Shown piece by piece: positions 28,425-55,202 of a DNA stretch of 64,000 nt. The stretch is from Longimicrobiales bacterium (GTDB lineage: Bacteria; Gemmatimonadota; Gemmatimonadetes; Longimicrobiales; Gaopeijiaceae). The stretch covers positions 2,304,001 through 2,368,000 of the forward strand of contig CBDBCF010000001.1 in NCBI GenBank assembly GCA_965202985.1, in the 5' to 3' direction. The notes under the pieces are model-generated. The model saw nothing but the letters and a program-made list of their open reading frames with translations, ran no database searches and had not been told where the DNA came from. The number at the start of each line of letters is the position of its first letter. The first letter of the stretch is position 1. The translations under genes and the position numbers were made by a program.

Positions 28425-28481
28425 GGACATCGGGGCTTGCGAAACGGGACACTCGCATGGACATTTCAGACATGCAAAATC
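28425..28481 (+). repeat. 57-bp island motif, copy 1
   Basis: GGACAT-cggggcttgc-GAAACGGGACA-ctcgcat-GGACATT-tcagacatgc-AAAATC; an extra GGACATTTCAG lies at 28398. Confidence 0.85.
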
Positions 28482-28494
28482 TACGCCTCCTCCC

Positions 28495-29820
28495 ATGACC
28501 CCACGCGCCTACCAGACCAGCCACCGCTGGATCACGTTCTCGATCAAGCTGCACCGGGCGTCGCCACGGCTCTGGGCGCTGCTAGGCCAAGCCGTGGCGT
28601 TCTGCGAGCAGGTTTCGGGGGCAGTCTTGCCGCCGCGCGACGCCCGGAAACTCTACCGGATGTACCTCGTCAAGGGTGTCAAGGCGACGACCGCCATCGA
28701 GAACAACACGCTGACCGAGGAACAGGTGGGCCGGGTGCTGGACGGGACCCTCGAGTTACCGCCGTCGCAGGAGTACTTGGGACAGGAAGTACGCAACATC
28801 TTGGACGTCTGCGAGGACATTCGGGACCAAATTCTGGCCGGAACGGCCCCGCGGCTCACGAGAGAATGGATCGCCGACGCGAACCGGGCGGTGCTCGGGG
28901 GGATGGAGGATGTGCTGGGAGAGGGAGTCATTCCAGGGGAGGTACCCGCCTTCCAGGTCGTGGTCGGTCGGTATCGGGGTGCGCCGAGGGAGGACTGCGA
29001 CTACTTGCTGGACCGCCTCTGCCGGTGGCTGGACGAGGACGACATGCCGGGTCCGGGTCCGGGGGCGGCCGAAGGAGACGCGTCCCAAGCGGAGCCGTCC
29101 GGCGCGTCGGACAACGGAGCCGCCGCCGATGTGACGGCTCTGACGGATGCCCCGGTGCCCGCCGGTAACGTCTTCCAGGACGCCCGCCGCCGGCGCATGG
29201 CGGAGGGCATCCTGAAGGCGACGCTGGCCCATCTGTACATTGCGTGGATTCACCCGTACGGAGACGGCAACGGGCGGATGGCGCGGCTGGTCGAGTTCAT
29301 GCTGCTGGCGCGGGCCGGAGTGCCGTTCCCGTCGGCACACTTGATGAGCAACCACTTCAACCTCACGCGCAACCGCTACTACCGTGAGCTGGACCGGTCC
29401 AGTCGGGTGAGCGGCCACGGGCGCGACGCCGACCGCGGAGACGTGTTCGGGTTCGTGGAGTACGCCGTTCGGGGGTTCGTGGACGGGCTCGCTGACCAAT
29501 GCCGGTACATCGAACACGTGCAGATGAAGTTGGCGTGGGAGGACTTCGTGTTCCAGACGTTTCGGCAGACCAAGGAGACGCCGGCGACTCGAAGGCGCAG
29601 GGAGATCGTGCTGGTGCTGTCTTCGCGGCAGGAGCCTGTCCCGAAGCAGGACGTCCCGTCGCTCACGTCGCAGCTGGCGCGCATGTACGCCGAGAAGACG
29701 CCCAAGACGCTGACTCGCGACCTCAACTGGCTGGTTGCCGAGGACCTGATCGAGCGGGGGCCGGAGGGCTACCAAGCGCGCATGGAGCAGATGAAGGCGT
29801 TCCGGGCCGGAAGCGACTGA
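28495..29820 (+). CDS. Fic family protein with C-terminal HTH
   Basis: TTAIENN; Fic motif HPYGDGNGRMAR; C-terminal KTLTRDLNWL..DLI. Confidence 0.9.
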   Translation: MTPRAYQTSHRWITFSIKLHRASPRLWALLGQAVAFCEQVSGAVLPPRDARKLYRMYLVKGVKATTAIENNTLTEEQVGRVLDGTLELPPSQEYLGQEVRNILDVCEDIRDQILAGTAPRLTREWIADANRAVLGGMEDVLGEGVIPGEVPAFQVVVGRYRGAPREDCDYLLDRLCRWLDEDDMPGPGPGAAEGDASQAEPSGASDNGAAADVTALTDAPVPAGNVFQDARRRRMAEGILKATLAHLYIAWIHPYGDGNGRMARLVEFMLLARAGVPFPSAHLMSNHFNLTRNRYYRELDRSSRVSGHGRDADRGDVFGFVEYAVRGFVDGLADQCRYIEHVQMKLAWEDFVFQTFRQTKETPATRRRREIVLVLSSRQEPVPKQDVPSLTSQLARMYAEKTPKTLTRDLNWLVAEDLIERGPEGYQARMEQMKAFRAGSD

Positions 29821-29823
29821 CCG

Positions 29824-32800
29824 ATGGCGCTCGAAGCCGCCGCGACCTTCGCCGGAATCCACAACGAGAACGAGTTCTACAGCCACCACTACCTGTCGGA
29901 GATCTTCGCCGGCGACATCAAGGAGACGATCAAGCGCTGGCAGGACGACGCGACGAACCGCGCGCCCCACGCCGCCCTCCGCGCATTGGCGACCGACTAC
30001 GCTCGGTTTCGCGACGCCTTCGAGCGACGGGTGGCCCGGCGGACGGGCGTTCGACAGACCGCTCGCCATCTCCACGCCGACCAGATCGCCGCCCAGCGCC
30101 AGTGGTTCCGCCGCTTCCTCGGCGCTCTGGGGTACGAAGCCGACTGGCACCCGGCCAACTTGCCGCTCGACGACGGCATCGAACTCCCCATGCTGTGCGC
30201 GGTTGGCCGAAGCAGCGCGGGCGCGCGCCAGTTGCTGGTCCTGGAGGCCTACGACGCCGGCGCAGAGGGCGACGACCCGCTGTCCGTCCGGCCCCATCCC
30301 GCCCAGTTCCACGGGGAGGCGCCTCCGTCGGCGGCGCTGCGGGACGAGCGTTGGGAGGACGTGGTGACGCGCCGCGTGTTCGGCCAGGAGCATCCGCCTC
30401 GCTGGGTGCTGCTGTTGTCGTTCGGCCAAGCGCTGCTGCTCGAACGAAGCAAGTGGACGCACAACCGCCTGCTGCGCTTCGACTTCGCCGAGATCCTGGG
30501 CCGTCGCGACGACGCCACGCTCAAGGCGGCCGCCGTCCTGCTCCACCGCGACAGCCTGCTGTCCCCGGACGGGCAAAGCCATGGCCTGCTGGACCGCCTG
30601 GACGAGAACAGCCACAAGCACGCCTTCGCCGTCTCCGAGGACTTGAAGTACGCGCTCCGCGAGTCGATCGAGCTGGTCGGCAACGAGGTCGTCCGGTACA
30701 TGCGCGAGGTGCGTCACGACAAGCTCTTCGACCTGGACGACGCCTTGGCGGGCCAGCTGGGCCTGGAGTGCCTGCGCTACATGTACCGCCTGCTCTTCCT
30801 CTTCTACATCGAGGCGCGCCCGGAGCTCGGATACGCGCCCGTGGCCTCCGACGCCTACCGCAAGGGATACAGCCTGGAGCACCTGCGCGACCTGGAGATG
30901 GTGCGGCTCGACACGCCCGAGTCCCGCGACGGCCACTACATCCACCACAGCGTGGAGCGGCTGTTCCGGCTGGTGCGCGACGGATTCGACGGCAGCAACT
31001 GGGGCGGCAGCGAGGACTTGCTGGCGGGCGTGGACGACGGGCGCTCCAACGGCTCCGAGCCCGCGTTGCGCTTCGGCTTCCGCGTGCGGCCGCTGGACAG
31101 CCGGCTGTTTCGCGAGGGATCGACGCCGCTCATCGACAAGGTGAAGCTGCGCAACGAAGTGCTGCAGAAGGTGATCCGGCTGATGTCGCTGACGCGGGCG
31201 GCGAGAGGGCGAGGCGGCAAGGGCGGCGCCGGCAAGGGTCGCGGACGCGGCGCGGGCAAGCGTCGGCGCAGGGGGCGCATCTCCTACGCGCAGTTGGGCA
31301 TCAACCAGCTGGGCGCGGTGTACGAGGCGCTGCTGTCGTACCGGGGGTTCTTCGCCGAAGAGGACTTGTACGAGGTCAAGAAGGCCGGGGCCGCGCACGA
31401 CGACTTGGACGCCGCGTTCTTCGTCGGCGCCAAGGACCTGGAACAGTACTCGGAAGACGAGCGCGTCCACGACCGGGACGAGGACCGCCGCCTCAAGCTC
31501 CGCGTCCACCGCAAGGGCACGTTCGTCTACCGCCTGGCCAGCCGCGACCGCCAGAAGTCGGCCAGCTACTACACGCCCGAGTCGCTCACCCGCTGCGTGG
31601 TCAAGTACTCCTTGCGCGAGCTCGTCACCGACGACATGCCCGCCGACGACATCCTGCGCCTGACCGTGTGCGAGCCCGCCATGGGCTCGGCGGCGTTCCT
31701 GAACGAGGCCGTCAACCAGCTCTCCGAGAAGTACCTGGACCGCAAGCAGCGCGAGCTGGGTCAGCGCATCCCTCACGACCAGTACGCCGACGAGCTGCAG
31801 AGGGTCCGCCACTTCGTCACCGACCGCAACGTCTACGGCGTGGACCTGAACCCGGTCGCCATCGAGCTGGCCGAAGTGTCGCTGTGGCTGAACTGCATCC
31901 ACGAGGACGGACATGTGCCATGGTTCGGCTATCAGCTGGCCTGCGGCAACTCGCTGGTGGGCGCGCGCCGGCAGGTGTATCCGGCGGAGAAGGTGCGCAA
32001 GGCGAAAGGCCAGAAGAAGGCGGACCTGTGGTTCAACGAAGCACCGGAGCGCGTGGAGCCGGGGCCGGAGGCGCGCCGTCCGCCGGGCGCCGTCTACCAC
32101 TTCCTGCTGCCGGACCCCGGGATGGTCGGCTACAAGGACAAGGCCGCGAAGGCGATGGAGGCGGCCAACTTCGAGCGCATCGCGACGTGGCGCCGCTCGT
32201 TCTTCAAAGCGTTCTCCGCCGAGGAGACGGCCAAGCTCGAGCGACTCTCGGACAAGGTCGACGAGCTCTGGACGATGCACGCCGAGCAGCTGGGTCGCGA
32301 TCACAGGGAGACCGAAGACACCCTGCCCGTGTGGGGCCAGCCCGCCTCCGCGCGTCCGCGCCGCACCAGCAACACGTGGAAGGACCGCATCCGCGCCCAA
32401 GGCATCTTCGGCGACGGCAACGACATGCGGACCGCCAGTCCCTATCGCCGCCTGAAGCTGGTGATGGACTACTGGTGCGCGCTGTGGTTTTGGCCGATCC
32501 GCAAGGCTGACCGCCTGCCCAGCCGTAGCGAGTTCCTGGCCGAGATCAGCTTGGTGCTGACGGGCAACGTCCAGCAACCCGGCGTCGGCCCCGACCAGAT
32601 CGGCGACCTCTTCGGCGCCGAGTATGCCCAGCATGCCGAAGAGATGGCCCGGCGGATCACCAACGAGACCGGGATGCTGGACTTGCGGAAGCTCTTCGCC
32701 GAGTTCCCCCGGCTGCGGTTCGTGAACGAGCTGGCGCGGCGGCACCGGTTCCACCACTGGGAGCTGGCGTTCGCGGACTTGTTCGCGGAGCGGGGCGGGT

Positions 32801-34854
32801 TCGACTTGGTGCTGGGGAACCCGCCGTGGGTGAAGGTCGAGTGGAAGGAGCAGGGCGTGCTGGGGGAGAAGAATCCGGTGCTGATGCTGCGGAGGACGTC
32901 GGCGACGGATGTGACCGAGTTGCGAGGGTCAGCGTTCCATCGGTACGCGGGGTTGCAGGGGGCGTGGCTGGACGAGATGGAGGAGGCCGACGCGACGCAG
33001 GCCTTCCTGAACGGAGCACAGAACTATCCGTTGCTGAAGGGTCAGAAGACGAACCTGTACAAGTGCTTCCTGCCGCAGGCATGGATGGTTGCCCGGCAGG
33101 ACGGTGGCGTGACGGGACTCCTGCATCCGGGCGGCGTGTACGACGATCCGAAGGGTGGTGCGTTCAGGGAAGCGTTGTATCCAAGGTTGCGGGCGCACTT
33201 CCAGTTCCAGAACGAGAAGCGGCTGTTCCCGGAGGTCCATCACCACACCAAGTTCAGCGTCAACGTGTACGGACGCTTGCGCCGACAGCCAGCGTTTCAG
33301 CACATCGCGAACCTGTTCCAGCCGCAGACTGTGGACGCTTGCGTTGAACACGACGGTCAAGGCCCGGTGCCCGGCATCAAAGACGACAAGGGCAAGTGGA
33401 ATGTGGCCGGGCACGCCGAGCGTGTGCTTGAAGTGGACGTGGACGCCCTGGGCAACTTCGCCAAGCTCTACGACGAGGAAGGAACGCCGCCCCATCAAGC
33501 CAGACTTCCCGCTCTTCACGCCAAGACGATGCTCGGTGCCCTGGCGAAGCTGGCGGCCCATCCGATGCGGCTGGGGGATTTGGGAGACGACGTCTTCTTC
33601 ACTTGGCATTGGGACGAGACCGGGGCCCAGCGTGACGGCACGATTCGTCGCGAGACGCGATTCCCGAATAGCTCCAGCGAGTTGGTGCTGTCTGGTCCAC
33701 ACTTCTTCGTTGGGAACCCGCTCAACAAGACGCCGCGCCGTGAATGCAAGCTGAACAGCCACTACGACGTGCTGGACTTGACCATCTTGCCGGAGGCCTA
33801 CCTGCCCAGGACGAATTATGTCCGCGATTGTGCTCCGAGGGAATACGAGCGAAGGACTCCTCGTGTCGGATGGGATGACGTCAGCGCAGATCAAGAAAAG
33901 GTCACAAGATATTACCGGGTCTCCAGCCGAAGGATGGTAGGGTCCATGGCGGAGCGAACCCTGATCACCGCTATTGTATCGAAAGATGTAGCTCACGTTC
34001 ACACGACGATGGCGAACGCCTTCCGCACCACTAACGAACTCCTTGACTTTGCCGCCACATCCATGTCTCTTGTGATGGACTTCATGATCAAGGCGTCCGG
34101 CGTGTCCGAGGCAGGCAAGTCACAGCTCGATCGCCTGCCTTTCCTCACCGAAGCCTGTCACGACATCATTCGGGCCGGGCTCCGTCTGCGTGCCCTGCGC
34201 CTCTCGTGCTTGACCAGCCACTACGCCCATCTTTGGAGCAGGGCCTGCGATGGAGGCAACCCCCCGGCCATTGAAGCATTCCGCACCGACTCCTGGACCA
34301 GCGACGACCCCCGCCTCCCGAACGACTTCCCGACCCTCGATTCCACTTGGTGCCAAGATCGCGCTCTCCGCACCGACTATGCCCGTCGCCAAGCCCTCGT
34401 CGAGATCGACGTGTTGACCGCGATGGCCCTCGGCCTTACGTTGGATGAGTTGCTCACCATCTACAGGGTCCAGTTCCCAGTCATGCGCCAATACGAAGCC
34501 GACACGTGGTACGATGCCAACGGCCGCATCGTCTTCACGCCATCCAAGGGGCTTCCGGCCGTCGGTATTCCCCGCACGGCCGTCAAGAACGATACCGCCT
34601 GGGCGGTCTCTACGCCCGTCGGCCACCGGTCGGCAATCCCCCTGGGATGGGACGACATCCGCGACCTCGACGAGGGTAGCGTCACCCGCACGGTCATTGA
34701 CGACACCCTGCCCGGCGGTCCAACTGAGCGCGTCATCGCATACTGCGCACCGTTCTCGCGGCCAGATCGGGAGAATGACTACCGGCAAGCATGGGCGACA
34801 TTCGCCCGAGGGCTTGGCCGGCTCGTGTCGTCAAGCTCCATGGCTAGCTCTTGA
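29824..34854 (+). CDS. Large N6-adenine DNA methyltransferase (type IIG/DrmMI-like)
   Basis: LGAVYEALL, SYYTP, motif I CEPAMGSAAFL, YGVDLN, motif IV GNPPW, NLYKCF; C-terminal target-recognition region. Confidence 0.9.
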   Translation: MALEAAATFAGIHNENEFYSHHYLSEIFAGDIKETIKRWQDDATNRAPHAALRALATDYARFRDAFERRVARRTGVRQTARHLHADQIAAQRQWFRRFLGALGYEADWHPANLPLDDGIELPMLCAVGRSSAGARQLLVLEAYDAGAEGDDPLSVRPHPAQFHGEAPPSAALRDERWEDVVTRRVFGQEHPPRWVLLLSFGQALLLERSKWTHNRLLRFDFAEILGRRDDATLKAAAVLLHRDSLLSPDGQSHGLLDRLDENSHKHAFAVSEDLKYALRESIELVGNEVVRYMREVRHDKLFDLDDALAGQLGLECLRYMYRLLFLFYIEARPELGYAPVASDAYRKGYSLEHLRDLEMVRLDTPESRDGHYIHHSVERLFRLVRDGFDGSNWGGSEDLLAGVDDGRSNGSEPALRFGFRVRPLDSRLFREGSTPLIDKVKLRNEVLQKVIRLMSLTRAARGRGGKGGAGKGRGRGAGKRRRRGRISYAQLGINQLGAVYEALLSYRGFFAEEDLYEVKKAGAAHDDLDAAFFVGAKDLEQYSEDERVHDRDEDRRLKLRVHRKGTFVYRLASRDRQKSASYYTPESLTRCVVKYSLRELVTDDMPADDILRLTVCEPAMGSAAFLNEAVNQLSEKYLDRKQRELGQRIPHDQYADELQRVRHFVTDRNVYGVDLNPVAIELAEVSLWLNCIHEDGHVPWFGYQLACGNSLVGARRQVYPAEKVRKAKGQKKADLWFNEAPERVEPGPEARRPPGAVYHFLLPDPGMVGYKDKAAKAMEAANFERIATWRRSFFKAFSAEETAKLERLSDKVDELWTMHAEQLGRDHRETEDTLPVWGQPASARPRRTSNTWKDRIRAQGIFGDGNDMRTASPYRRLKLVMDYWCALWFWPIRKADRLPSRSEFLAEISLVLTGNVQQPGVGPDQIGDLFGAEYAQHAEEMARRITNETGMLDLRKLFAEFPRLRFVNELARRHRFHHWELAFADLFAERGGFDLVLGNPPWVKVEWKEQGVLGEKNPVLMLRRTSATDVTELRGSAFHRYAGLQGAWLDEMEEADATQAFLNGAQNYPLLKGQKTNLYKCFLPQAWMVARQDGGVTGLLHPGGVYDDPKGGAFREALYPRLRAHFQFQNEKRLFPEVHHHTKFSVNVYGRLRRQPAFQHIANLFQPQTVDACVEHDGQGPVPGIKDDKGKWNVAGHAERVLEVDVDALGNFAKLYDEEGTPPHQARLPALHAKTMLGALAKLAAHPMRLGDLGDDVFFTWHWDETGAQRDGTIRRETRFPNSSSELVLSGPHFFVGNPLNKTPRRECKLNSHYDVLDLTILPEAYLPRTNYVRDCAPREYERRTPRVGWDDVSADQEKVTRYYRVSSRRMVGSMAERTLITAIVSKDVAHVHTTMANAFRTTNELLDFAATSMSLVMDFMIKASGVSEAGKSQLDRLPFLTEACHDIIRAGLRLRALRLSCLTSHYAHLWSRACDGGNPPAIEAFRTDSWTSDDPRLPNDFPTLDSTWCQDRALRTDYARRQALVEIDVLTAMALGLTLDELLTIYRVQFPVMRQYEADTWYDANGRIVFTPSKGLPAVGIPRTAVKNDTAWAVSTPVGHRSAIPLGWDDIRDLDEGSVTRTVIDDTLPGGPTERVIAYCAPFSRPDRENDYRQAWATFARGLGRLVSSSSMASS

Positions 34855-34906
34855 CAGGCTGGCTATGTTCTTCCTTCTATCGGACGACCCGGTACAAGGA
34901 GGACAG

Positions 34907-35263
34907 ATGGCCCTCGTCTACTGCATCCACCAGCCAGTTCGGCCCGAGACCGAATACCCTGTTCGGACCCTTCACGACGACCGACACCGCCACGAGTTGC
35001 GGGCCCGTGTGGCGAGGCCCTGCGTGGCGAAGGACAGGGCGACGTCCGACTGCTTCCACGCAGCAGAGAGCGACACGTTACGGCGGACGACGCGCTTGCA
35101 GTGGCTGGTGCCCCAGGTCGGGCTGGCGATGACCGCCACCCTGGACACCCTGCCATCTCGTCACCACATAGTCTCCAGCCGTCCCCCTTCCGCGAACAAG
35201 GACGGTCACAGCCCCTATTCAGCCCTCACGATTCCTTGTATCCGTCACGAAGTTGCTATATGA
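34907..35263 (+). CDS. Hypothetical 118-aa protein upstream of SIR2
   Basis: AAGGAGG RBS before ATG 34907; its stop overlaps the SIR2 start (ATGA); no recognisable family. Confidence 0.35.
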   Translation: MALVYCIHQPVRPETEYPVRTLHDDRHRHELRARVARPCVAKDRATSDCFHAAESDTLRRTTRLQWLVPQVGLAMTATLDTLPSRHHIVSSRPPSANKDGHSPYSALTIPCIRHEVAI

Positions 35264-36420
35264 TGTCGAAACCGCACCGCGTCGTCGCACATCACGACAG
35301 GGAAGTTTTTCTCGCAACAATGCGGGATCACCTCTCCCGCCACGATAGGCCATTAGCCTTTCTATTTGGGGCAGGCACTTCATGTTCCGTTCGTTGTATC
35401 GATGCCGATGCCCCAGATGAATCGCCGACGCCGCTGATTCCAGATGTTCACCACCTCACCATAAGGTGTCGAGAGGCTGTCAACGGTCTCGGTTGCGACT
35501 ACGCTTCGGCATGGTCTGCAATCGTCGATCGCTGTAGTTCCACGAATGAAGAGCCAAATGTTGAACACGTTCTATCTATGTTGCACATGATGATTGAAGC
35601 AATCGGCTCCTCGGATCGGCTTGCTGGGTTAGATAGGGATGCATTGCGCCGGGTAGATGCATGCATCCGAAAATGTATTGCGAAAGCCGTCAAACCAGAG
35701 TTGGATCATATCCCTCCAGACACACCCCATCATCGGTTCGCACGGTGGCTGGCTAGAACAGCTAGGAAAGTACCTGTTGAAGTGTTTACGGTGAATTACG
35801 ACATATTATTTGAATTGGCGTTTGAGGCCGAGCGTGTACCGTTCTTTGATGGCTTCATAGGTAGCCACGAACCGTTTTTCTACTCCGAAAGTCTCTTACA
35901 TTCGCGATGGAAGCCGGCGGATGGATGGACTCGATTGTGGAAAATTCACGGCTCAGTAAACTGGCAACGTCGCCAGTCTGACAATCACATCGTTCGTGTG
36001 CAACCCCACGGTACCGGAGAAATGATTTTCCCGACGTTTGAGAAGTACGACAAATCTCGTCAGCAACCCTATGTTGCATATATCAACCAGCTTGATCGTT
36101 TTCTAGGGCTAGACGACGCGCTTCTTGTGGTTGCCGGTTTCGGTTTCGGTGACGAGCACTTGAGCGACGTCATTATTCGACGACTGGAAAACAATCATCG
36201 AGCACACATGTATGCACTCATGTTCACCGAGTCGTGGCAACCGTCTTCCAGAATCCATGATTATTCCCTTCAACGTGGAAACATCGTACTTGCCGGACCT
36301 GAAACGGGCATTATCGAGAAAAGACGCGGTCCCTGGCTATCTGGTGACGCCCGTTGCGAAATGAATCTTGGTGATTTTTCGGAATTGTGCCAGTTTCTTG
36401 ATCAAATGACATCGGGGTGA
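35260..36420 (+). CDS. SIR2-like (SIR2_2) NADase
   Basis: FLFGAGTS, FTVNYD, WKIHGS, VAGFGFGDEH; lies in a low-GC block. Confidence 0.88.
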   Translation: MMSKPHRVVAHHDREVFLATMRDHLSRHDRPLAFLFGAGTSCSVRCIDADAPDESPTPLIPDVHHLTIRCREAVNGLGCDYASAWSAIVDRCSSTNEEPNVEHVLSMLHMMIEAIGSSDRLAGLDRDALRRVDACIRKCIAKAVKPELDHIPPDTPHHRFARWLARTARKVPVEVFTVNYDILFELAFEAERVPFFDGFIGSHEPFFYSESLLHSRWKPADGWTRLWKIHGSVNWQRRQSDNHIVRVQPHGTGEMIFPTFEKYDKSRQQPYVAYINQLDRFLGLDDALLVVAGFGFGDEHLSDVIIRRLENNHRAHMYALMFTESWQPSSRIHDYSLQRGNIVLAGPETGIIEKRRGPWLSGDARCEMNLGDFSELCQFLDQMTSG

Positions 36421-36427
36421 TCGTCAA

Positions 36428-38275: not shown

Positions 38276-38483
38276 ATGGCGATACGTGCAGTCTTCGAAC
38301 GTCGATGCGATCAGGTACTGCAGACACACCAGCGAGCTTTATGTTCGGTTTCGTGATGGCGGAGAATACGTCTATTATGATGTAGACGAGAATGTGTTCC
38401 TGGAATTCCTACACGCTGCATCGGTAGGTAAGTACCATGCCCGGAACATTAGGGGACGATACAGGTACATGAGGCTGTCCTAG
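38268..38483 (+). CDS. KTSC domain protein
   Basis: V-SSNV..IRY....ELYVRF.DG..Y.Y.DV....F..F..A.SVGKY....IRG.Y pattern; 8-bp overlap with the herA stop. Confidence 0.85.
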   Translation: MSEWRYVQSSNVDAIRYCRHTSELYVRFRDGGEYVYYDVDENVFLEFLHAASVGKYHARNIRGRYRYMRLS

Positions 38484-38517
38484 CAGCCGTGGGCACTGGG
38501 CGAGGCACGCTTCATCG

Positions 38518-38985
38518 CTTGAACGCGAAGTCCTACTCGTCAAGCGTTCTGAACGACGGCAGAGGGCTCGACCGCATCGCCGTGGCTTACCGACGGCTGT
38601 AGCACAAGGTGCGCCGCCAACAGCTCCTCGATCGCTTCGGCTGCCGTCGCAGCACCGCCGTTTGGCGCGAGCCAAGCACGTCGGCAAGGGCCTCGAGCGC
38701 GCCCGGCATCTTTGAGTCCGCCAGCAGCTCGGTGGGCAGGCCTCCGAAGAACACGGACGCTCTTTCCAGGCCCCCGCGCATCGGTCTCCATTCGTCTGCC
38801 GCTCGTAAGTATTGGTGCCACAGCATCCGCGAGTAGCCCAGCACCACCGCACTGCCCTGCCAGGCTTGCTGGAGCCGCGTGTCCTGCGCCCAGCACTTGG
38901 CCCTCGGCCTCAGGAAGAACCCACCGTCCACACCGCCAAGGGAACATTCTACTTTGGCCAACTACCGGACGTACTTGGCTTGACA
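38518..38985 (-). mobile_element. IS21-family remnant (terminal repeat + istA fragment joined to istB fragment)
   Basis: Minus strand begins TGTCAAG at 38985. VVLGYSRMLW..GLE.A..FFGGLPTELLAD is IstA-like. KMPGALEAL..AIEELL..RR*ATAMRSSPLPSFRTLDE*DFAF is IstB-like, with stops and frameshifts. Confidence 0.75.
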
Positions 38986-39124
38986 TTGCAACCGCCCAAG
39001 CCCCTTGACCCGTTCCGCCTCCGCTCCCATCGTTCCCGTCACAACCCCGCGCGTCCCATCCTGATTGTCGCTCCCCCCTAGCCGAAGCCAGCGTGCAAGA
39101 GACCAGAAGGCTATCGAACTACGG

Positions 39125-39181
39125 AGACATCCGAGGCTCGGAAACGGGACATGCCTGTGGACATTTTGGGCCACCGAAATC
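39125..39181 (+). repeat. 57-bp island motif, copy 2
   Basis: AGACAT-ccgaggctcg-GAAACGGGACA-tgcctgt-GGACATT-ttgggccacc-GAAATC. Confidence 0.85.
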
Positions 39182-43726: not shown

Positions 43727-43783
43727 GGACATTCAGGGCGCGGAAACGGGACATCGGAGCGGACATTCTAGGGCCTCGAAATC
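43727..43783 (+). repeat. 57-bp island motif, copy 3
   Basis: GGACAT-tcagggcgcg-GAAACGGGACA-tcggagc-GGACATT-ctagggcctc-GAAATC. Confidence 0.85.
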
Positions 43784-43987
43784 GCACGGAGACGACGACG
43801 CGCCGAATGGGGAAGGCTGGCCGATGAGACTCAAGGGGGTTCGAGGTTGCGCTGCACGCGGGACCGTACCGAATTTCGAGAAGGACTCGCGAAGCCTCGG
43901 GAGTTGTGGTCGCGGGGCAGTCCTACGAGGCGGGCGCTGGGCTCCGTGGCTACGGAGCTCGCCGACCAAACGGAGCAAGGAGGAGAG

Positions 43988-48000: not shown

Positions 48001-51000
48001 GCCGAGGTGCGGAGCGGCAAGGGTCGGCCCCTGGTCGTCCCCCGTCAGGAGGCGAAGCTGTGGGAGAGCCTGCCAAGCCTGGACTTGCTGGCCTCGGGCC
48101 GGTACGAACGCCACAGAGTCGCTCGCCCGACTTGGTTCGGACGCCTCTACCGCGACATGAAGGTCCGTCGCATCGTCGCCGCCGAGCACACGGCCCTGTT
48201 GCCGCGCAAAGAACGCGAACACCTTGAGAAGCGGTTCGCAACGGAGGGCTACCGGCCTTGGGACCCCAACGTCTTGTCGGCAACGCCCACGCTGGAACTG
48301 GGAATCGACATCGGCGACCTGTCCACGGTCATGCTCTGCTCGGTCCCCCCGGAACCCGCCAACTACTTGCAGCGAGCGGGCCGAGCGGGCCGACGCGACG
48401 GCAACGCCTTCAACTTGGCCGTGGCCGCCGCACAGCCGCACGACCTCTACTTCTATGCACAGCCGCTGGACATGCTGGCCGGCAAGGTCGAGCCGCCCGG
48501 CGTCTTCCTGAACGCCACCGCCGTGCTGGAACGGCAGATGATCGCGTACTGCCTCGACAGCTGGGTAGCCTCGGGCGTGGACGAGCGCGCCGTGCCCAGG
48601 ACGATGCGCGCCGTGCTCGCCAACGTCGAGCGTAGGCGGTTGTCTCGGTTCCCGTATCCGTTCTTCGACTTCGTGGGCGAAAACGCTGGCGAGCTTGTGG
48701 CGTCCTTCTTGAAGGCGTTCGACAAGGACTTGAGCGAGACTAGCAAGCGGGCGCTTTCGAGGTTTGTGATCGGCGATGCCGAATCCTCCGTTCACGGCCG
48801 GCCGCTGGTTCACCGCCTCCTCGACCGCTTCGCCGAGGTGGCCAGGGAGCGCAAGTCGATTCGTCGCGAGGTGCAGACGTTGCAGAGACGCGCCGAATCG
48901 TTGAAGCGGGAACCGCAGGATGAAAGCACCCAGGCCGAGATCGACGAGGTGGACGCCGAACGGCGCGGGCTTCAAGGCGTGCTGCGCAAGATTGACAGCC
49001 GCGAGACGTACAACTTCCTCACGGACGAGGGGCTGGTCCCCAACTACGCCTTCCCGGAGAAGGGCGTCATGCTCCGTTCGGTAATCTTGCGAAGGGGCGA
49101 CAAGGCCGCTGGGAGCGACGGCAAGGCGGACCCGCGGCTCGACCACGAGGTGTTCGAGTACGAGCGACCGGCGGCGGCCGCGTTGAGCGAGCTTGCCCCG
49201 GACAACAGCTTCTACGCCGGTGCGCGCAGAGTGCAGATAGACCGCGTGGACTTGGAGACGTCGAAGTTGGAGCAGTGGAGGCTTTGCCCGGCTTGCGTCT
49301 ACTGCGAGCGCGTGGACTCGGTGGACGGCCACGCGACGTGTCCTGGCTGCGGCGACCCCCGGTGGGGCGATGTCGGGCAACGCAGGGAGATGCTTCCGCT
49401 GCGCATGGTGCACGCCACGACGTCGGACAGGGAAAGCCGCATCGGCGACGAAAGCGATCAGCGGCAGCCGAAGTTCTACACCCGTCACTTGGTGGCCGAC
49501 TTCGATCCCAATGAGGACCGGACCGCCTTCGTCGCCACGGGGACCCCCTTCGGCTTCGAGTACATCCCGTCGGCGACCTTCCGGGAGATGAACTTCGGCC
49601 ACCGCTCGGACCAGACCGAGCCGACGCTGGTGGCGGGCCTGCAACTTCCACGAGGCGGGTTCCGCATTTGCAGAGAATGCGGCACGGTACAGCCGTCCGC
49701 TGACAACGACAAGCCGAAGCACACCCGAACGTGTCCAGCGCGACGGCGAGGCGATGGTTCCGGCGCCGACACGATCGCCGAGTGCATCTACCTGTACCGT
49801 AAGTTCGAGTCGGAGGCGATTCGGATGCTTGTACCCGGGGTCGGCGGGGCCAGCGCGGACCTGAACATGCACTCGTTCGTGGCCGCGCTGGAACTCGGCC
49901 TGCGGCGCAAGTTCGGCGGCGAGATCGGACACCTCCGCACCATGGAGTGCGAGTATCCGATTCCGGAAACGAGTCGAAGTCGAAAGTACTTGCTGTTGTA
50001 CGACACCGTGCCCGGCGGCACCGGCTACTTGAAGGACCGCATGACCGACCCCGGCAAGCTGCGCTCGATCTTCGAGGCGGGACATGCCGCTTTGTGCGAG
50101 TGCGCCTGCATCGAGGACCCCGAGAAGGACGGCTGCTACCGTTGCGTCTTCGCCTACCGCCGGAGCCGCGACATGCCCACCACCTCGCGCAAGGTGGCCG
50201 AACGGCTGGTGGCGGCAACCCTGAAGCGGTGGTCGGAGCTGGAGGTCGTGGAGGGGTTGACCGGCGTCGCCGCCAACGTCCTGACCGAGAGCGAACTGGA
50301 GGAGAGGTTCATCGAGGCGTTGCGGCAGAGGGCCGCGAACCCGTTGGCGGACGGCTCTGGATCGCCCGTCGGCTCTGAGTCGGCGAGCGGTTCTGGATTG
50401 GCCGAAGCACCCGCGGTCGAGATTCGCAGCGCGCCGGTGAAGGGCAAGCCCGGCTACATCCTGTCGGTCGGCGGCAACAAATATCGTGTGGAGCCGCAGG
50501 CCGACTTCGACTTGGGCGACGGCGTGGCCATTCCCAGCCGGCCCGACTTCGCGATCTGGCCGGATTCGACGCAGGGCACAGGGCCGCCACCTGACGCCCC
50601 CGCCGTCGCCGTCTTCCTCGACGGCTTCGAGTACCATCGGGACCAGACCGGCGACGATTCGGCGAAGCGCATGAGCTTGGCCCGGGCCGGGGTCCTGGCG
50701 TGGTCGCTCACGTGGGACGACTTGGAAGGCGCCTTCGGTGGCGTTCCCAGCGCGCCGAACTTCATGGGGACCATGGCACCGACCCAGACCGCCGTCCAAG
50801 ACGCCCTGGACGACAGGTGGGACGCGCAGTGGGACACGCGGAAGTTGCGGTCGCGGCTGACCGCGCCCTCGTTCGACCTGCTCCTGCACTACCTGGCCAA
50901 CCCGGTTCCCGCGAAGTGGCGGCGGGCCGTATTCGTCGAGATGCTCGGAGTCTTCGATCAGGAGCAGATGACCAGTCCCGCCTTGCGCGCTCGCTTCGAC

Positions 51001-51774
51001 GACGCGGCAAGCGACGCCTTGCCCGGCCAAGTGCTGGAAGCCGTGGCCGATCTTGCGCAGCCCGTCGTGGTCGGCGGCTTCGGACCGTGGGTCTCGGGGG
51101 CGACCGACGACGCGCGCGCGGCGGCCCGTAAGGCCACGACGCCCGTCCCGCATCGATCAGCCGCATCCCTTTTCGCCGCCCTGCCCCTTGCTGCCATCCC
51201 AGCCACGGACCCGGCCAGCGTTATCGCGGTCGCGCACTTCGACGACGCGAGGGCAGATGCCACCGCCGGGAGCAACGCCCAGAACGCGATGACCAAGCAG
51301 TACCGCATCGACTGGAACGGCGTGCTGCGCCTTTTCAACGTCCTCCAGTTCCTGCCTCAGGCCTGGTGGACCACTCGGACAGGCGTTTCCGGCGGCCTCT
51401 ACCCCGAGTTCGCGCCGCCGGACACCCTCCGTGGCCGGGACGGTGAGCCCTCGGAGGACGACGCCCACCGCCTCGTCGCGCCGCAGCTCCGGCCCCTATT
51501 GCGCCAGCTTGCCCAACGCGACCTCCCCGCCCCCGAACCCGGCCACGAGCTGGCCGACGACGCCGGCAAGGTCGTGGCCCACGCGGAACTGGCTTGGCCC
51601 AGTCGGCGCATCGCGGTGTTGCTCCCGGACCAAGAACACCACAGGATGCATTACGAGAGATTGAGCTGGCAGACTTTGACGGCGGACCGGGAGGCACTGG
51701 CCGGCACCCTCGTCGACACGCTTGCGCAAGCTCTCGCCGTCTCCCCACCGTCCACGAAAGGCGCGCCACGATGA
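45079..51774 (+). CDS. YprA/Hrq1-like DEAH helicase with DUF1998 (MZB) and C-terminal nuclease-like domains
   Basis: TGTGSGKTE, YPMNALA, TNYKMLD, DELH, TSATL, several CxxC pairs, TPTLELGIDIG, QRAGRAGR, YDTVPGGTG, CAC..GCYRC, then RPDF..VFLDGFEYH. Confidence 0.9.
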   Translation: MIPSVVASEALDALHDFLKTGFGPSSPELSGVVDDFLADPDNLAKGPYLSISLPFEHAAGGGEPFPHIPLGFTPYNHQRTAMERLSPDAGRSTVIATGTGSGKTECFLYPVLEHCRRQAGKPGVKAVVVYPMNALASDQARRIARIVHDTPSVRGRVTAGLFIGQAAGSPRDRMGPDAVITDRSAMRERPPDILLTNYKMLDYLMIRPRDRRLWRHNQPDTLRYLVVDELHTFDGAQGTDLACLIRRLRMRLGTPAEKLVCAGTSATLGGDPREYVSRIFDQEFDADSIVGESRQTIDAFLGDALIRRHLLPTQDLAKVVDPRRYDTAEAYLRAQHELFLGTPIEGDFEAAEWRVALGEGLRQHVVFVNLLRALDGRSQPLPKLAKRLQGSLPVSNDKEALGVLNGLCALISASRRRPAPSDDNGGDALLPFLHVGVHLWVRELRRMVCSVGSASDIGGKNESRFRLRHFADLKADEPFVHLPLVQCRECHVTGWVTKLSGAGSARPKVLSHRARDGTQDGLQDIYGAFFGGDVDAVFLFPRDGGADLGKGVPSLLCGKCGVLANDDGDRSDDHADSDKPNDICACPDNALVKVYRPVVVTHRGGSSGGAKSRLSKNCPYCNAREAMVVLGARAASLLAVALNQTVSSRHNDDPKVIAFSDSVQDAAHRAGFVSARTWSTNMRAAIAQTVAANDRSSLEELSGQVAAGWRAHWRNASGNAQDTLDLPSDAPDLARFVGEFIAPDRRWLNDFRELEETGRLPRGSDLPELVERRMRWNTFAEFGQRSAIGRTLENTRTAAVGVDRATLDEACDTATARLGEELQGLRGAPAEVARALVLGIVRRMKDRGAILTDMVKGYLADGGNPFVLRNDRGLPDFGTDRSTVPVFPGTKATRKLGVEPLFGSARKGKSWYQKWTRRVLDHHGLALAVHDSDVVLGIVFQALDAAGLVRKADVGKGQHAWGLVPDRLYVTTEVAEVRSGKGRPLVVPRQEAKLWESLPSLDLLASGRYERHRVARPTWFGRLYRDMKVRRIVAAEHTALLPRKEREHLEKRFATEGYRPWDPNVLSATPTLELGIDIGDLSTVMLCSVPPEPANYLQRAGRAGRRDGNAFNLAVAAAQPHDLYFYAQPLDMLAGKVEPPGVFLNATAVLERQMIAYCLDSWVASGVDERAVPRTMRAVLANVERRRLSRFPYPFFDFVGENAGELVASFLKAFDKDLSETSKRALSRFVIGDAESSVHGRPLVHRLLDRFAEVARERKSIRREVQTLQRRAESLKREPQDESTQAEIDEVDAERRGLQGVLRKIDSRETYNFLTDEGLVPNYAFPEKGVMLRSVILRRGDKAAGSDGKADPRLDHEVFEYERPAAAALSELAPDNSFYAGARRVQIDRVDLETSKLEQWRLCPACVYCERVDSVDGHATCPGCGDPRWGDVGQRREMLPLRMVHATTSDRESRIGDESDQRQPKFYTRHLVADFDPNEDRTAFVATGTPFGFEYIPSATFREMNFGHRSDQTEPTLVAGLQLPRGGFRICRECGTVQPSADNDKPKHTRTCPARRRGDGSGADTIAECIYLYRKFESEAIRMLVPGVGGASADLNMHSFVAALELGLRRKFGGEIGHLRTMECEYPIPETSRSRKYLLLYDTVPGGTGYLKDRMTDPGKLRSIFEAGHAALCECACIEDPEKDGCYRCVFAYRRSRDMPTTSRKVAERLVAATLKRWSELEVVEGLTGVAANVLTESELEERFIEALRQRAANPLADGSGSPVGSESASGSGLAEAPAVEIRSAPVKGKPGYILSVGGNKYRVEPQADFDLGDGVAIPSRPDFAIWPDSTQGTGPPPDAPAVAVFLDGFEYHRDQTGDDSAKRMSLARAGVLAWSLTWDDLEGAFGGVPSAPNFMGTMAPTQTAVQDALDDRWDAQWDTRKLRSRLTAPSFDLLLHYLANPVPAKWRRAVFVEMLGVFDQEQMTSPALRARFDDAASDALPGQVLEAVADLAQPVVVGGFGPWVSGATDDARAAARKATTPVPHRSAASLFAALPLAAIPATDPASVIAVAHFDDARADATAGSNAQNAMTKQYRIDWNGVLRLFNVLQFLPQAWWTTRTGVSGGLYPEFAPPDTLRGRDGEPSEDDAHRLVAPQLRPLLRQLAQRDLPAPEPGHELADDAGKVVAHAELAWPSRRIAVLLPDQEHHRMHYERLSWQTLTADREALAGTLVDTLAQALAVSPPSTKGAPR

Positions 51775-52856
51775 TCCGCCGCGTCACGGTCCGCAACTTC
51801 AAGCGCTTCGAAGAGCAGACGTTCGAGCTTGCCGATTCGGTGGTGCTGGCGGGGCCCAACAACGCCGGAAAGTCTACCATGCTCCAAGCGATCGCGACGT
51901 GGAAGCTGGGCATGGACCGCTGGATCGCCCGGCGCGGTGCGGGAAGCGCCAGCAGCGCGGTCAAACGATCCGGCGTCCCCATCACCCGACGCGGACTGAC
52001 AGCGACGCCGCTTCGCGAGATGAACCTGCTTTGGCGCAACCGCCGAGTCGCGCGAACCAAGCAGGAAGGAGCCCCAGCGGGCACGCCCAGGCTGATCGAG
52101 ATCGTGCTGGAGGGGGGCGGGGAGGCACCATGGAAGTGCGGTTTGGAGTTCCAGTATGCGGACCCCCAGATGGTCTACGTGCGACCCCAGGGTGCAAAAC
52201 AGCTCGACCGCGAGAGCATACGCCGCTTCCCGCCGAAGCCGGCCGCCGATCTGGAAGTCGTGCACATCTCGCCGTTGGCCGGTATTCGACGGGACGAACC
52301 GCGCCTGGACAAGGGGATGCAAGACCTGCTTGTCGGTCAGGGGCAGGTTGGTGGAACGCTGCGCAACCTATTGTTGGAGGCCGCCGAGAAGGAAAACGGC
52401 GATTGGGAGGACTTGGTTGGGCACGTCCGCGACCTGTTCGGGATCGGTTTGCGGAGGCCCGTCTACTCGCCGGCCCAGCCGTACATCTTGTGCGAGTACG
52501 ATGAACCAAAGGGATCGGGTCGCCCTCTGGACTTGGCCAACGCCGGCAGCGGCACGCTTCAGGTCATCCTCCTGCTGGCCTTCCTCTACGCGCGTCCGGC
52601 ACCGGTGATGCTGCTCGACGGACCTGACGCGCACCAGCACGTCGTCCTGCAGAAGCAAGTGTACGGCCTGCTCCGCAAGGTGGCCCGGGAGCGCGGCGGG
52701 CAAGTCGTCCTGGCCACGCACTCCCAGGTCGTCCTGGATGCGACGGCCCCGGAACGCGTGCTGCACTTCTACGGCGGCCGGTATCACGCGCTGACGATGG
52801 GCGCCGACTCCCGATCCGCCGGGGATCAAGCTATGACGCGGGAGGTCGTATCGTGA
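51771..52856 (+). CDS. ABC-type ATPase with altered Walker B
   Basis: VRNFKRF, GPNNAGKS, AGSG, LLDGPDAH (DEP expected), ATHS; 4-bp overlaps on both sides. Confidence 0.8.
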   Translation: MIRRVTVRNFKRFEEQTFELADSVVLAGPNNAGKSTMLQAIATWKLGMDRWIARRGAGSASSAVKRSGVPITRRGLTATPLREMNLLWRNRRVARTKQEGAPAGTPRLIEIVLEGGGEAPWKCGLEFQYADPQMVYVRPQGAKQLDRESIRRFPPKPAADLEVVHISPLAGIRRDEPRLDKGMQDLLVGQGQVGGTLRNLLLEAAEKENGDWEDLVGHVRDLFGIGLRRPVYSPAQPYILCEYDEPKGSGRPLDLANAGSGTLQVILLLAFLYARPAPVMLLDGPDAHQHVVLQKQVYGLLRKVARERGGQVVLATHSQVVLDATAPERVLHFYGGRYHALTMGADSRSAGDQAMTREVVS

Positions 52857-55087
52857 GAGGGCGCTACAAGCTGGCGATTTCGGGCGACTTCTTGCCTGCC
52901 TTTGCGAAGTTGCCGAAAGCACAGCAACAACGGGTCCACGGACTTATCCAAAAGCTCCGGGAGAACCCCACGTCGCCGGGACTGAACTACGAACGCATAC
53001 GCAATGCGCAGAGCCCGAAGATGCGCTCCGTGCGGATCGACCAAGCCTATCGCGCGATCGTTTACGACACCGGGCAGGGTGGACTTCACCTTCTCCTCTG
53101 GGTTGCCAAGCACGACGACGCCTACGCCTGGGCCATGCGCAAGGAGTGCGCCGTCAACCCCGAGACCGGCACTGTGCAGGTGTTTGCGTCCCGGCCCGAC
53201 GACTCCGGCCAGGGCCCGGCCGCAACACCCAGCACGGCGGCGGCCCCATCGGCCCCATCGGCCCCATCGGACCCGTCCGCCTTCGACCAGCTCAAGGACC
53301 GCCAGCTTGTGCGCCTGGGCGTTCCGCAGGCAATGCTCCCGGAAGTCCGAACGGTTCACGACGACGCAGACCTCGAAGCGATGAAGGAACGCTTGCCCAA
53401 AGACGCCTACGAGTCCCTCTTCTACTTCCTGGCCGGCGATTCCTACGACAAGCTGATCCTCGAACGCGAAGCTCCCAGCGAACCGGTCGACACCAGCGAC
53501 TTCGAGGCGGCCCTGGGCCGCAGCGAATCACGCGCTCGGTTCGTCGTGGCGGACGACGATGCCGCCCTCCAGCAAGTGCTCAACGCGCCTCTGGAGCAAT
53601 GGCGGGTCTTCCTGCATCCGTCGCAACGCAGGCTGGTGGAGCGACGGTGGAACGGTCCCGTTCGCGTGCTGGGCGGCGCAGGCACGGGCAAGACCGTCGT
53701 GGCTATGCACCGGGCGCGCTGGTTGGCTCGGCGGATGGCGGACCCGGACCGCGACAGCGACGCCAGCGGAAACCGAGCGGACGGCGCACGCAAGCGCATC
53801 CTCTTCGTCACCTTTGCCCGCAACTTGGCCGCCGACATCGAGAACAACCTGCGTTCGATCTGCTCGCCCGAGGAGATGAAGCGGATCGAGGTGACCAACC
53901 TGGACCGATGGGTGGTCGCGTTCCTGCGCCGCCAAGGGTACGAGTTCCAAATCACCTACGACAAGGACCGGGACCAGCACGCACGGGCCGCGTGGGAGCG
54001 CGCCATGGCTCTTCGGGACCTCGCCTTGGACCACACCGACGCCTTCTACGCCGAGGAATGGCAGCACGTCGTCCAGGCCGCCGGCATCGGGACCGAGGAA
54101 GAGTACTTGCGCGTCTTCCGGGCGGGCCGGGGCACAAGGCTCGGCCGCAGCGCCAGGGCCAAGGTCTGGCCCGTCTTCGCAGAGTACCGGGCGCAGCTGA
54201 CGGAGCACGGGATCAAGGAAGTGGACGACGCCTACCGCGACGCAGCGGCGCTTCTCCGACGCAAACGGAACGCGCCGAGCGCGGACTACGCCGCCGTGAT
54301 CGTCGACGAAGCGCAGGACCTGGGTGCGCCTGCGTTCAAGCTGATCCGCAGCATCGTGCCGGAGGGCAAGGACGACCTGTTCGTCGTCGGGGACGGCCAC
54401 CAGCGCATCTACGGGCGGAGCAATGTCGTGTTGGGACGTTGCGGGATCAACATCCGAGGACGATCGCACAAGTTGCGGCTGGGCTACCGCACCACCGAGG
54501 AGACGCGCGCTTGGGCTGTCGACCTACTGGAAGACCGCGAGATCGACGACCTGGACGGCGGCCGGGACGACAACCGCGACTTCAAGTCTCTCACCCACGG
54601 CCCCGAGCCCAGCCTGCACCACTTCGACAACCGGAGCGCTCAGGCGAACTGGATCGCCCAGTACCTGGACAAGATGTCGCAGCGCGACGAACCGCTGCGC
54701 GGAGCCTGCATCGTCACGAGGACGCGGAACGAGCGCGACGCATTGGCCGACGGACTCGGCGACCGGGGCGTGAACGTCCACGTCTTGGAGCGCGAAGACC
54801 CGGACCCCGAACACGACGACTGCGTCCGCTTGGCGACGATGCACCGCGTGAAGGGACTGGAGTTCGACCGCGTGCTGATCGCCAGCGTCAACCGTCGCAT
54901 GGTGCCCCTCTCCAGAGCGCTCCGCAAAACGGGCGACGCTGCCGCCCGCGAGGTTGCGGAAACCGGCGAGCGCGCCCTGGTCTACGTGGCCGCCACCCGC
55001 GCCAAAAAGGAGCTGCTGGTGCTCAGCTACGGGCGCCGAAGCGAGTTCCTGGGACAGGACAACTACGCCAGCGACCTGTTCGGCTAG
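52853..55087 (+). CDS. UvrD-like SF1 helicase with N-terminal RelE-like domain
   Basis: GGAGTGKT, VDEAQD, GDGHQRIY, GYRT, TMHRVKGLEF, YVAATRA; N-terminus PGLNYERI..SVRIDQAYRAIV. Confidence 0.88.
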   Translation: MRGRYKLAISGDFLPAFAKLPKAQQQRVHGLIQKLRENPTSPGLNYERIRNAQSPKMRSVRIDQAYRAIVYDTGQGGLHLLLWVAKHDDAYAWAMRKECAVNPETGTVQVFASRPDDSGQGPAATPSTAAAPSAPSAPSDPSAFDQLKDRQLVRLGVPQAMLPEVRTVHDDADLEAMKERLPKDAYESLFYFLAGDSYDKLILEREAPSEPVDTSDFEAALGRSESRARFVVADDDAALQQVLNAPLEQWRVFLHPSQRRLVERRWNGPVRVLGGAGTGKTVVAMHRARWLARRMADPDRDSDASGNRADGARKRILFVTFARNLAADIENNLRSICSPEEMKRIEVTNLDRWVVAFLRRQGYEFQITYDKDRDQHARAAWERAMALRDLALDHTDAFYAEEWQHVVQAAGIGTEEEYLRVFRAGRGTRLGRSARAKVWPVFAEYRAQLTEHGIKEVDDAYRDAAALLRRKRNAPSADYAAVIVDEAQDLGAPAFKLIRSIVPEGKDDLFVVGDGHQRIYGRSNVVLGRCGINIRGRSHKLRLGYRTTEETRAWAVDLLEDREIDDLDGGRDDNRDFKSLTHGPEPSLHHFDNRSAQANWIAQYLDKMSQRDEPLRGACIVTRTRNERDALADGLGDRGVNVHVLEREDPDPEHDDCVRLATMHRVKGLEFDRVLIASVNRRMVPLSRALRKTGDAAAREVAETGERALVYVAATRAKKELLVLSYGRRSEFLGQDNYASDLFG

Positions 55088-55145
55088 GCGTAGCTCATCG
55101 CGGCGACACCATGGTGCATGGCCAGGGCAACATAGCCCGAGGCCC

Positions 55146-55202
55146 GGACAGCTGGGCGTCCAAACCGGGACATCGCGACGGACATTTCAGGGGGTAGAAA
55201 TC
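55146..55202 (+). repeat. 57-bp island motif, copy 4
   Basis: GGACAG-ctgggcgtcc-AAACCGGGACA-tcgcgac-GGACATT-tcagggggta-GAAATC. Confidence 0.8.

Follow-up and report, generated by a model that had tools for sequence, protein, structure and literature searches.

The stretch of DNA analysed here (the window) comprises 64,000 nucleotides from a Longimicrobiales bacterium (contig CBDBCF010000001.1, positions 2,304,001 to 2,368,000). It carries a defence island with variable cargo interspersed among core genes, which encode a DrmD-like SNF2 helicase, a Fic protein, a type IIG-like methyltransferase, a DEAD/MZB helicase, an AAA ATPase, and UvrD. Within the island, a 57-bp motif, RGACAK-N10-RAAMCGGGACA-N7-GGACATT-N10-RAAATC, occurs four times on the forward strand. 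Copy 1 (28425..28481, +) ends 14 bp before the ATG of fic (28495..29820, +), which encodes a class II Fic enzyme with a C-terminal winged helix-turn-helix (wHTH). Copy 2 (39125..39181, +) lies upstream of a PDC-M23A/B (HamAB-like) pair, copy 3 (43727..43783, +) is followed by an rpn relic and a HEC-01A-like ATPase gene, and copy 4 (55146..55202, +) stands after uvrD and faces a convergent S9 peptidase gene. On balance, sequence comparison with relatives suggests that the motif is an ancestral direct-repeat operator of the Fic-wHTH protein, dispersed within one lineage and kept mostly beside defence or accessory genes. It is not a demonstrated cassette system; it is a lineage-amplified, operator-like array of Fic-wHTH.

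The repeated DNA motif is real. Pattern matching in the window confirmed the four copies of the initial annotation at 28425, 39125, 43727, and 55146 with their fixed spacing, and the minus strand of the window gave no match to the same pattern. For the 35-bp core of the motif, about 2e-5 matches per genome are expected by chance. A position weight matrix (PWM) built on the four copies returned nine matches in the genome at 29.8-75.3 bits, with the next score at 14.3; each copy omitted in a leave-one-out PWM was regained at 41.7-50.8 bits, and a PWM rebuilt on 46 sites gave no match above 12 bits in the reversed genome. Three GGACA boxes spaced 22 and 12 bp apart had been described, and this spacing holds, but the site is better seen as a tandem array in which a 34-bp unit, GGACA-N7-GGACATT-N10-RAAATC, recurs 1.5 to 2 or more times, which places boxes at -34, -22, 0, and +12. 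Slippage has extended some copies to longer arrays with a 12- or 22-bp period, and some show at most a degenerate ATTTC..GAAAT inversion. Spacers are on average 44% identical between copies. RAAATC is counted as part of the site because it is present in 7 of the 8 GGACA-N7-GGACA pairs that the gene caller left intergenic.

The proposed binder is the product of the gene behind copy 1. It matches Pfam Fic (PF02661), has the catalytic motif HPxxDGNGR in the form HPYGDGNGR, and carries an N-terminal inhibitory helix like the TSAIEG helix of CbFic2 (TTAIEN, residues 65-70, conserved in the alignment of homologues). It matches the PADLOC SoFic model with E 5e-40. The wHTH spans residues about 363-428, with the recognition helix PKTLTRDLNWL. 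In the structure model (predicted local distance difference test score, pLDDT, 87) the C-terminus folds as helix-helix-helix-wing, and fold matches include 4rgl, 8cil, 7xux, and 3eqx. Among the gene calls, the island Fic is the only strong match to the wHTH profile (E 7e-33; next 0.01), and no Fic relative was found on plasmids at E 1e-30. In one relative (G331; L326:15900-18300), a partial fic duplication and two extra degenerate sites lie upstream of the intact fic.

The site precedes fic in 7/7 lineage genomes, with a box identity of 0.98 and a spacer identity of 0.49. GACA boxes 12 or 24 bp apart and no more than 200 bp upstream were found at 43 of 53 fic-homologue loci (60 given, 53 usable), a set that includes duplicates and close kin. 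Dereplication at 65% identity left 19 homologues, 11 of which have the 12/24-bp pair upstream, against a shuffle mean of 0.17 (max 3); such pairs were seen at 0/18 downstream of dereplicated homologues and at 0/19 on the reverse strand. Spacings of 12, 24, and 36 dominate. GGACA-N7-GGACA also stands directly upstream of the Fic family in other genera of the phylum, in one actinobacterial record, and in several viral contigs (distant homologues were sampled at 10 metagenome and 14 viral loci), and three distant examples also close with GAAATC, 11-13 bp past the last box. In other genera the RAAATC slot reads CATAAT or TATAAT. Copy 1, at what would be the ancestral position, is strongly read as a putative autoregulatory operator.

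The repeat appears to change together with the recognition helix. In two homologues with the helix KTIYND or KIIYND, the 12-bp repeats upstream differ (AAGTAAAA, AGTCAAAA). Two further Fic paralogues encoded in this genome come with (T)GTCAAA direct repeats at 12 bp, at or near their starts (G000:C1:1240100-1240370, G000:C2:903950-904070). The suggestion of a regulon with Fic-HTH as binder is supported by comparative genomics, through the repeats upstream of fic, the helix and repeat variants, and the sole wHTH match. Direct binding of the array by Fic is rather likely on these grounds.

A related pattern was observed within coding sequence. In unrelated bacteria, AlbA_2/RecG-C-type genes and other wHTH genes related to them encode four-residue NVPL/NVPI repeats immediately ahead of the wHTH; read on the opposite strand, these are 12-bp GGGACATT repeats (L136:1892-3238, L137:74-460, L092:2864-3238; helices KTIKRD, KTARRD, and RQIRRV). 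These linker repeats may be intragenic operators for their own wHTH.

Fic proteins with a helix-turn-helix (HTH) are already known to bind at their own promoters. CccR of Yersinia pseudotuberculosis, a Fic with a C-terminal HTH, represses its own promoter, according to the accessible text of PMC9755527. Its domain order is like that of the island Fic, and 7xux, a structure that came out with that work and that we infer to be CccR, is among the top fold matches. The CccR operator described there is a 10-bp inverted repeat with a 26-bp spacer, with no further sites at regulated genes, whereas here a direct-repeat array with 12/22-bp periods is dispersed, and reverse-strand pairs were found at 0/19 homologues. 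SoFic of Shewanella oneidensis binds as a dimer to the 100 bp upstream of its own gene (10.64898/2026.07.09.737422, accessible part). Both it and the island Fic are class II Fic-wHTH proteins, although identity in the structural alignment is only 12-14%; the accessible part of that paper gives no motif and mentions no dispersed sites, and its supplement may name a motif. RptR, a repressor of a defence island, is small and single-domain, recognizes a 6-bp palindrome core, and acts at one promoter, as far as the accessible text of PMC12255303 describes it; the binder proposed here is an enzyme-wHTH fusion whose site is multiplied across the genome. No description of this dispersed site system was found in the literature searched, mostly without subscription papers or supplements. 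Fic autoregulation itself is known; the dispersed array would extend it in a new form, possibly as a genome-wide defence regulon.

The motif is not confined to the island, as had been supposed from the window. Six further copies bring the genome to ten (C1 505469, 767835, 1111915, 1482935, and 2374557, the last one partial and 6.5 kb beyond the window; C2 179068). Nor are all copies intergenic genome-wide: the C2 copy is in frame within the coding sequence of a DrmD-like helicase, and another two run into the 3' ends of genes. Of 41 relatives searched for the strict core, four contain it, and these four belong to a single genus. In a sample of 201 genomes of the order, which included no other member of this genus, the full three-box form occurred in two: this genome and a sister genus whose single copy lies directly upstream of the same fic gene. 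Relaxed-pattern counts are 10 in this genome (G000), 10 in G001, 2 in G002, 19 in G003, 10 in G331, 12 in G332, and 1 in G333, against 0-2 copies in other genera. From these counts, the single copy at fic is probably ancestral and dispersal derived.

Among the matches listed in the collection scan, the titled records rich in copies are Longimicrobiales metagenome-assembled genomes. Outside Longimicrobiales, at least 114 stretches had one match each, nearly all without the -22 box, a number close to what a rough estimate gives for chance (about 35 or more). Inspection of 17 such matches showed one in front of a fic homologue and three that code for NVPL-type repeats ahead of a wHTH; viral contigs contributed three single matches to the motif scan. 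Three looser matches in other genomes were rejected as chance coding matches in an ABC transporter gene, and a looser match in G259 is not at fic. Replichore polarity, hinted at by this genome alone, was rejected because congeners show mixed orientations. Runs labelled sponge metagenome contain about half of the 38.8-48.7 kb stretch, and no RNA dataset was among those listed as containing it.

Defence and variable loci are overrepresented among the neighbours of the dispersed copies. In other genomes, 9 of 22 independent sites adjoin a gene resembling one of the island, rpn, or ATPase queries, while the background among gene pairs is 228 of 2767 (8.2%; p 3e-5); the query set was drawn from the site neighbours of this genome, and only non-orthologous sites were counted. 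Scatter across the genome is accompanied by the enrichment at defence or variable loci that the initial annotation proposed to look for. Near several of the remaining 13 sites, Pfam identifies AAA_21, AAA_16, PLD, NACHT, and methyltransferase genes. In terms of geometry, 64 site records, counted by hand on our own crude gene calls, divide as follows: 19 point the same way as both flanking genes, 13 are divergent, 12 convergent, and 11 reversed, 8 lie in open reading frames (ORFs), and 1 is a duplicate. A protein-coding repeat was ruled out, as just 8 of the 64 lie within called ORFs.

Among the recurrent neighbours of the site are rpn (YhgA-like) genes. An rpn gene lies within 500 bp of 19 of 63 sites, which are not independent of one another, compared to 20 of 500 random intergenic points. 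Three rpn families bear the site. One, in G003, has it at the 3' end; a second (this genome, G332) has it at the 5' end in forward orientation; and a third, arranged in tandem arrays, has it reversed at the 5' end. The rpn-A units of G003 have a sharp edge at GAAATCCG and the site at their 3' end, and truncated and internally deleted copies occur. The accessible text of PMC10400941 describes rpn expansions as multi-copy, without target duplications, with ragged ends and tandem arrays, and lacking defined ends; the families here are alike in copy number, lack of target duplications, ragged ends, and tandem arrays, and differ in having the site at one end in three of them. This genome has about 33 rpn, 22 AAA_22-type, and 16 AAA_21-type genes, and its gene order is heavily shuffled relative to congeners. 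A near-palindromic GTCCCAT-CCAGC-TATGG box occurs in the leaders of several rpn genes and at the left end of G003 rpn units (G000:C1:767631, 1111755, 1482856, 1789443, 2825840; L013, L025, L032).

Copy 3 is 83-86% identical over about 60 bp to the three other rpn-linked copies of the genome. It is probably a decayed or converted site-rpn unit, since an rpn relic (43835..44022, +; 45% over 64 aa, E 3e-9; 71% DNA identity over 191 bp), of a family that elsewhere has the site at its 5' end, adjoins it and its closest sequences are rpn-linked copies. A second DrmD-like gene carries the site within its linker, in the reading frame, in three genomes (L005:8860-12207, with the site region at G000:C2:179013-179100; L214, L314, L266); there the variable linker is about 10 residues longer than in most homologues and the last site codons match a conserved AAEID stretch. 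In G003 this gene has shrunk to a drmD relic of some 80 codons, with the site inside it.

The island combines a recurring core with variable cargo. Its core begins with the DrmD-like SNF2 helicase gene (23467..27189, +; ORF taken from the first start codon, the true start being probably later) and continues with fic and, directly after it, the type IIG-like methyltransferase/nuclease gene (29824..34854, +). An rpn gene upstream of copy 1 (27352..28347, +; one of about 33 in the genome) and a low-GC SIR2-HerA pair with no site at its left junction (35101..38275, +) are variable cargo. The PDC-M23A/B pair (39303..43261, +) is followed by genes for a HEC-01A-like ATPase, a DEAD/MZB helicase (DruE-like), an AAA ATPase, and a UvrD-like helicase (43847..55087, +). 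The earlier module labels mostly hold, except that the 'HamA/HamB' pair is best matched by PADLOC PDC-M23A/B and the ATPase after copy 3 by HEC-01A; the KTSC label was not borne out by a search of NCBIfam, Pfam not having been scanned for it. Resemblance of the core to class I DISARM is only partial, with scores below NCBIfam cut-offs, and MANTIS, as far as its accessible description goes, does not match. The M23 module stands between two copies (38988-39071, 43342-43412) of a second short dispersed repeat, tandem TCTCATCTTG[AG]TTGTCGC, which also occurs in about ten other places.

In relatives, the same core (window 23467-55087; L326-L335, L037-L044) is found at different chromosomal positions with other cargo and no integrase within. 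Copy 1 is conserved in 7/7 lineage genomes (in one strain contig, homology starts at 28425), copy 3 in 4 (orthologues in G001, G003, and G331), copy 4 in 4 (kept in G001, G331, and G332), and copy 2 in 2, its orthologue in G331 having a different left flank. A type I-G CRISPR-Cas system (clustered regularly interspaced short palindromic repeats) replaces uvrD in G331 and G332 (loci L328 and L330), where the last ~100 bases of uvrD and copy 4 remain; in G002 and G333, uvrD is present without copy 4.

A mechanism can be proposed from these observations. Fic would contact the array through tandem wHTHs about one helical turn apart, possibly as a spreading oligomer, and Fic bound at the ancestral upstream array would repress the fic-methyltransferase operon, as shown for CccR and suggested for SoFic. 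Within the lineage, a unit of some 60 bp containing the array would have spread to 10-19 places in each genome; roughly one copy in three appears to ride on duplicating rpn units that later decay, and others would have moved by routes outside rpn hitchhiking. Copies may be retained because Fic still binds them. Those before toxic genes (ATPases, rpn nucleases, methyltransferases, helicases) would most likely be repressor sites, giving a loose Fic-controlled defence regulon, and those at 3' ends or between converging genes would probably be transcription roadblocks, Fic sinks, or passengers. Repression of genes other than fic through the copies is put forward tentatively, as a possibility falling somewhat short of even chances. 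Any regulon would be patchy, because few rpn and AAA_21-type genes have the site.

Several observations weigh against an operator dispersed from fic. The conservation of the boxes is partly built in, the sites having been found by pattern. Eight of the 19 dereplicated homologues lack the 12/24-bp pair, several of them despite a KTLTRD-like helix (three of the eight have a 34-36 bp spacing), and the close homologue L194 has no box upstream. The covariation of helix and repeat is based on just two homologues and two paralogues. RAAATC makes a poor -10 element in this genus, and the sole mapped Fic-HTH operator found, that of CccR, is an inverted repeat; a symmetric dimer would not fit direct repeats in a simple way. 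With regard to the dispersed copies, 13 of 22 independent sites have no match in the query set, and just 4 of 33 rpn and 2 of 16 AAA_21-type genes of this genome have a site. Furthermore, among the 55 intergenic copies, 12 are placed between genes that converge and 11 point opposite to the gene in front of which they stand; 8 of 64 records fall in called ORFs; and unrelated copies cease to resemble one another at the edges of the site.

Fic-wHTH proteins occur widely in defence islands, and only a handful of them have known DNA targets. The array provides a concrete cross-phylum candidate operator, and natural helix and repeat variants make its specificity directly testable. If Fic binds the distal copies, a genome-wide defence regulon would stand under an enzyme-toxin, compared to RptR and CccR, which act at one promoter; one toxin-like enzyme may control or monitor many defence genes, and this, if true, may explain how newly arrived toxic defence genes are tolerated by their hosts. 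A bolder extension, which we consider unlikely though worth stating, is that the Fic-bound array of about 60 bp is a self-spreading unit that marks or captures foreign DNA and is copied to new junctions without a dedicated recombinase. By the same unlikely scheme, incoming toxic defence genes would come under Fic control as they arrive, and the accessory genome as a whole would be tied to one AMPylating enzyme, its activity set by the number of sites occupied, making it both the head of a regulon and a sentinel of chromosome integrity. The covariation of helix and repeat would then also constitute a readable DNA-recognition code for Fic-wHTH proteins across phyla.

A recombination or landing-pad junction, perhaps bound by Fic, for the capture or exchange of defence modules is a quite unlikely alternative explanation. 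It would employ an enzyme in trans (Rpn nuclease, DDE transposase, or XerCD) or homology-facilitated illegitimate recombination. One-sided junctions at site edges are indeed common. Most groups of sites share one arm only: the fic arm occurs with 6 left arms and the rpn-B arm with 5, the rpn-A arm is joined to 5 right arms that all differ, one per site, and both flanks of copy 3 are mixed. Non-orthologous copies resemble each other only over about -24..+37, with background outside, and the sharp end of G003 rpn-A units at GAAATCCG fits a junction. The last codons of dctM have been replaced by a site-rpn unit, while dctM is intact and siteless in four relatives, and new cargo gathers just upstream of copies 1, 3, and 4. 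However, purifying selection on a short site within unstable, fast-changing intergenic DNA explains sharp edges equally well.

The undescribed capture or shuffling system that the initial annotation had envisaged is not supported, with no dedicated recombinase found, swaps at siteless junctions, and no module loss mapped between two copies. Each of 7 lineage genomes has two full-length tyrosine recombinases (PF00589), presumably XerC and XerD, with one further broken gene in G000, and serine recombinases or resolvases were absent from the 5 genomes searched. Modules do not lie between paired sites, and cargo differs as well at the junctions behind the methyltransferase and drmD genes, where no site is present. 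None of the observed module losses maps exactly between two copies: deletions in G001 and G332 end inside genes, and a strain contig without the M23 module joins 39043 to 43358 in the second dispersed repeat rather than at the sites (depth 2.8, weak). Among 15 of 46 contig joints listed over 27600-47500, none is at a site. In a filled/empty pair, the site is followed by some 25 bp of filler and the target is not duplicated, and no target-site duplications were seen elsewhere in relatives that are just 75-85% identical. Integrons (attC/IntI) are a useful comparison, being characterized by a tyrosine integrase, an inverted-repeat site that folds as a single strand, and exact gain or loss of modules. 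The dedicated integrase of an integron cassette array has no counterpart here, the site consists of direct repeats without pairing covariation instead of an imperfect inverted repeat, and, as to exact gain or loss, one-sided junctions at site edges are common though the observed deletions end elsewhere.

Alternatively, the dispersed copies could serve as a Fic sink or sentinel that tethers Fic across the chromosome while the neighbouring genes are unregulated, an explanation we rate as improbable. DNA binding would set the AMPylation/deAMPylation state, and loss or degradation of site DNA would free toxicity, resulting in addiction or abortive infection. Retention of the site independently of orientation and position is in keeping with this, as are copy 4 persisting despite the replacement of uvrD, the site in the drmD relic of ~80 codons, and the score of Fic to PADLOC SoFic. 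According to the accessible text of PMC10628234, DNA binding stimulates (de)AMPylation by CbFic2, although that assay used random DNA, and relatives with the same fic have just 1-2 sites.

Slightly less probable still is a portable promoter, a site of another factor (an alternative sigma factor or other HTH protein), or an RNA repeat like those of type III toxin-antitoxin systems. Of the 55 intergenic copies, 43 stand at the 5' end of at least one gene, and the terminal slot is -10-like in other genera, but sigma70-like promoter and terminator scans made no call at copies 1-3, and the repeat differs where the Fic helix differs. Type III toxin-antitoxin RNAs have near-identical 34-36 nt repeats with a pseudoknot, followed by a terminator, and the 34-bp unit matches the length of such antitoxin repeats. 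At the site, spacers are just 44% identical on average and no terminator was called at copies 1-3; Rfam gave no match, and pairing covariation was absent in 32 dereplicated sites (best excess 0.21, shuffle mean 0.21).

Least probable by our estimate is an origin without any role for the host, either as a relic of ISNCY/IS1202-type insertion sequence (IS) ends or as a miniature element that such a transposase mobilized. Likeness to the IS end at 38941-38985, a decayed ISNCY/IS1202-type end (38941..38986, +) with the terminus TTGACA, had been pointed out; it holds for the 9-bp box GGACATTTC, common to the last site box and the ISNCY ends of the genome, and not for period or terminus. The sharp rpn-A edge lies 24-25 nt from the start of the last box, which is the IS terminus distance, and such transposases were found in all 7 lineage genomes searched. 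IS ends, however, have a period of 25 and end in TTTGACA, whereas the site has periods of 12/22 and ends in GAAATC with a variable flank; an IS-end pattern, strict enough to have also missed the decayed end near copy 2, was beside 0/64 site records, and a relic leaves the fixed position upstream of fic across phyla unexplained; the reading is largely refuted for copy 1. Neither the terminal TGT...ACA nor the paired inverted ends around a transposase gene of IS1202/ISNCY elements were seen at the site. Tn7-like ends are recognized by a TGT terminus, an array of TnsB sites, and tns genes; the site has no conserved terminus, and no tns family was found among the 44 window ORFs scanned, the whole genome not having been searched for tns genes. 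According to the accessible part of 10.1101/2022.12.17.520857, IS1202-family ends start with TGT or TRT.

Minor features complete the picture of the locus. An extra GAGGACATTTC box upstream of copy 1 (28396..28420, +) resembles the internal box of the ISNCY ends of this genome. No tRNA is present in the window. Beyond copy 4, a minus-strand cluster encodes large proteins with almost no family matches (window 57480-63981, L006:2975-9504), and a partial site that overlaps the end of a 210-aa gene in this cluster is kept in G001 and G331.

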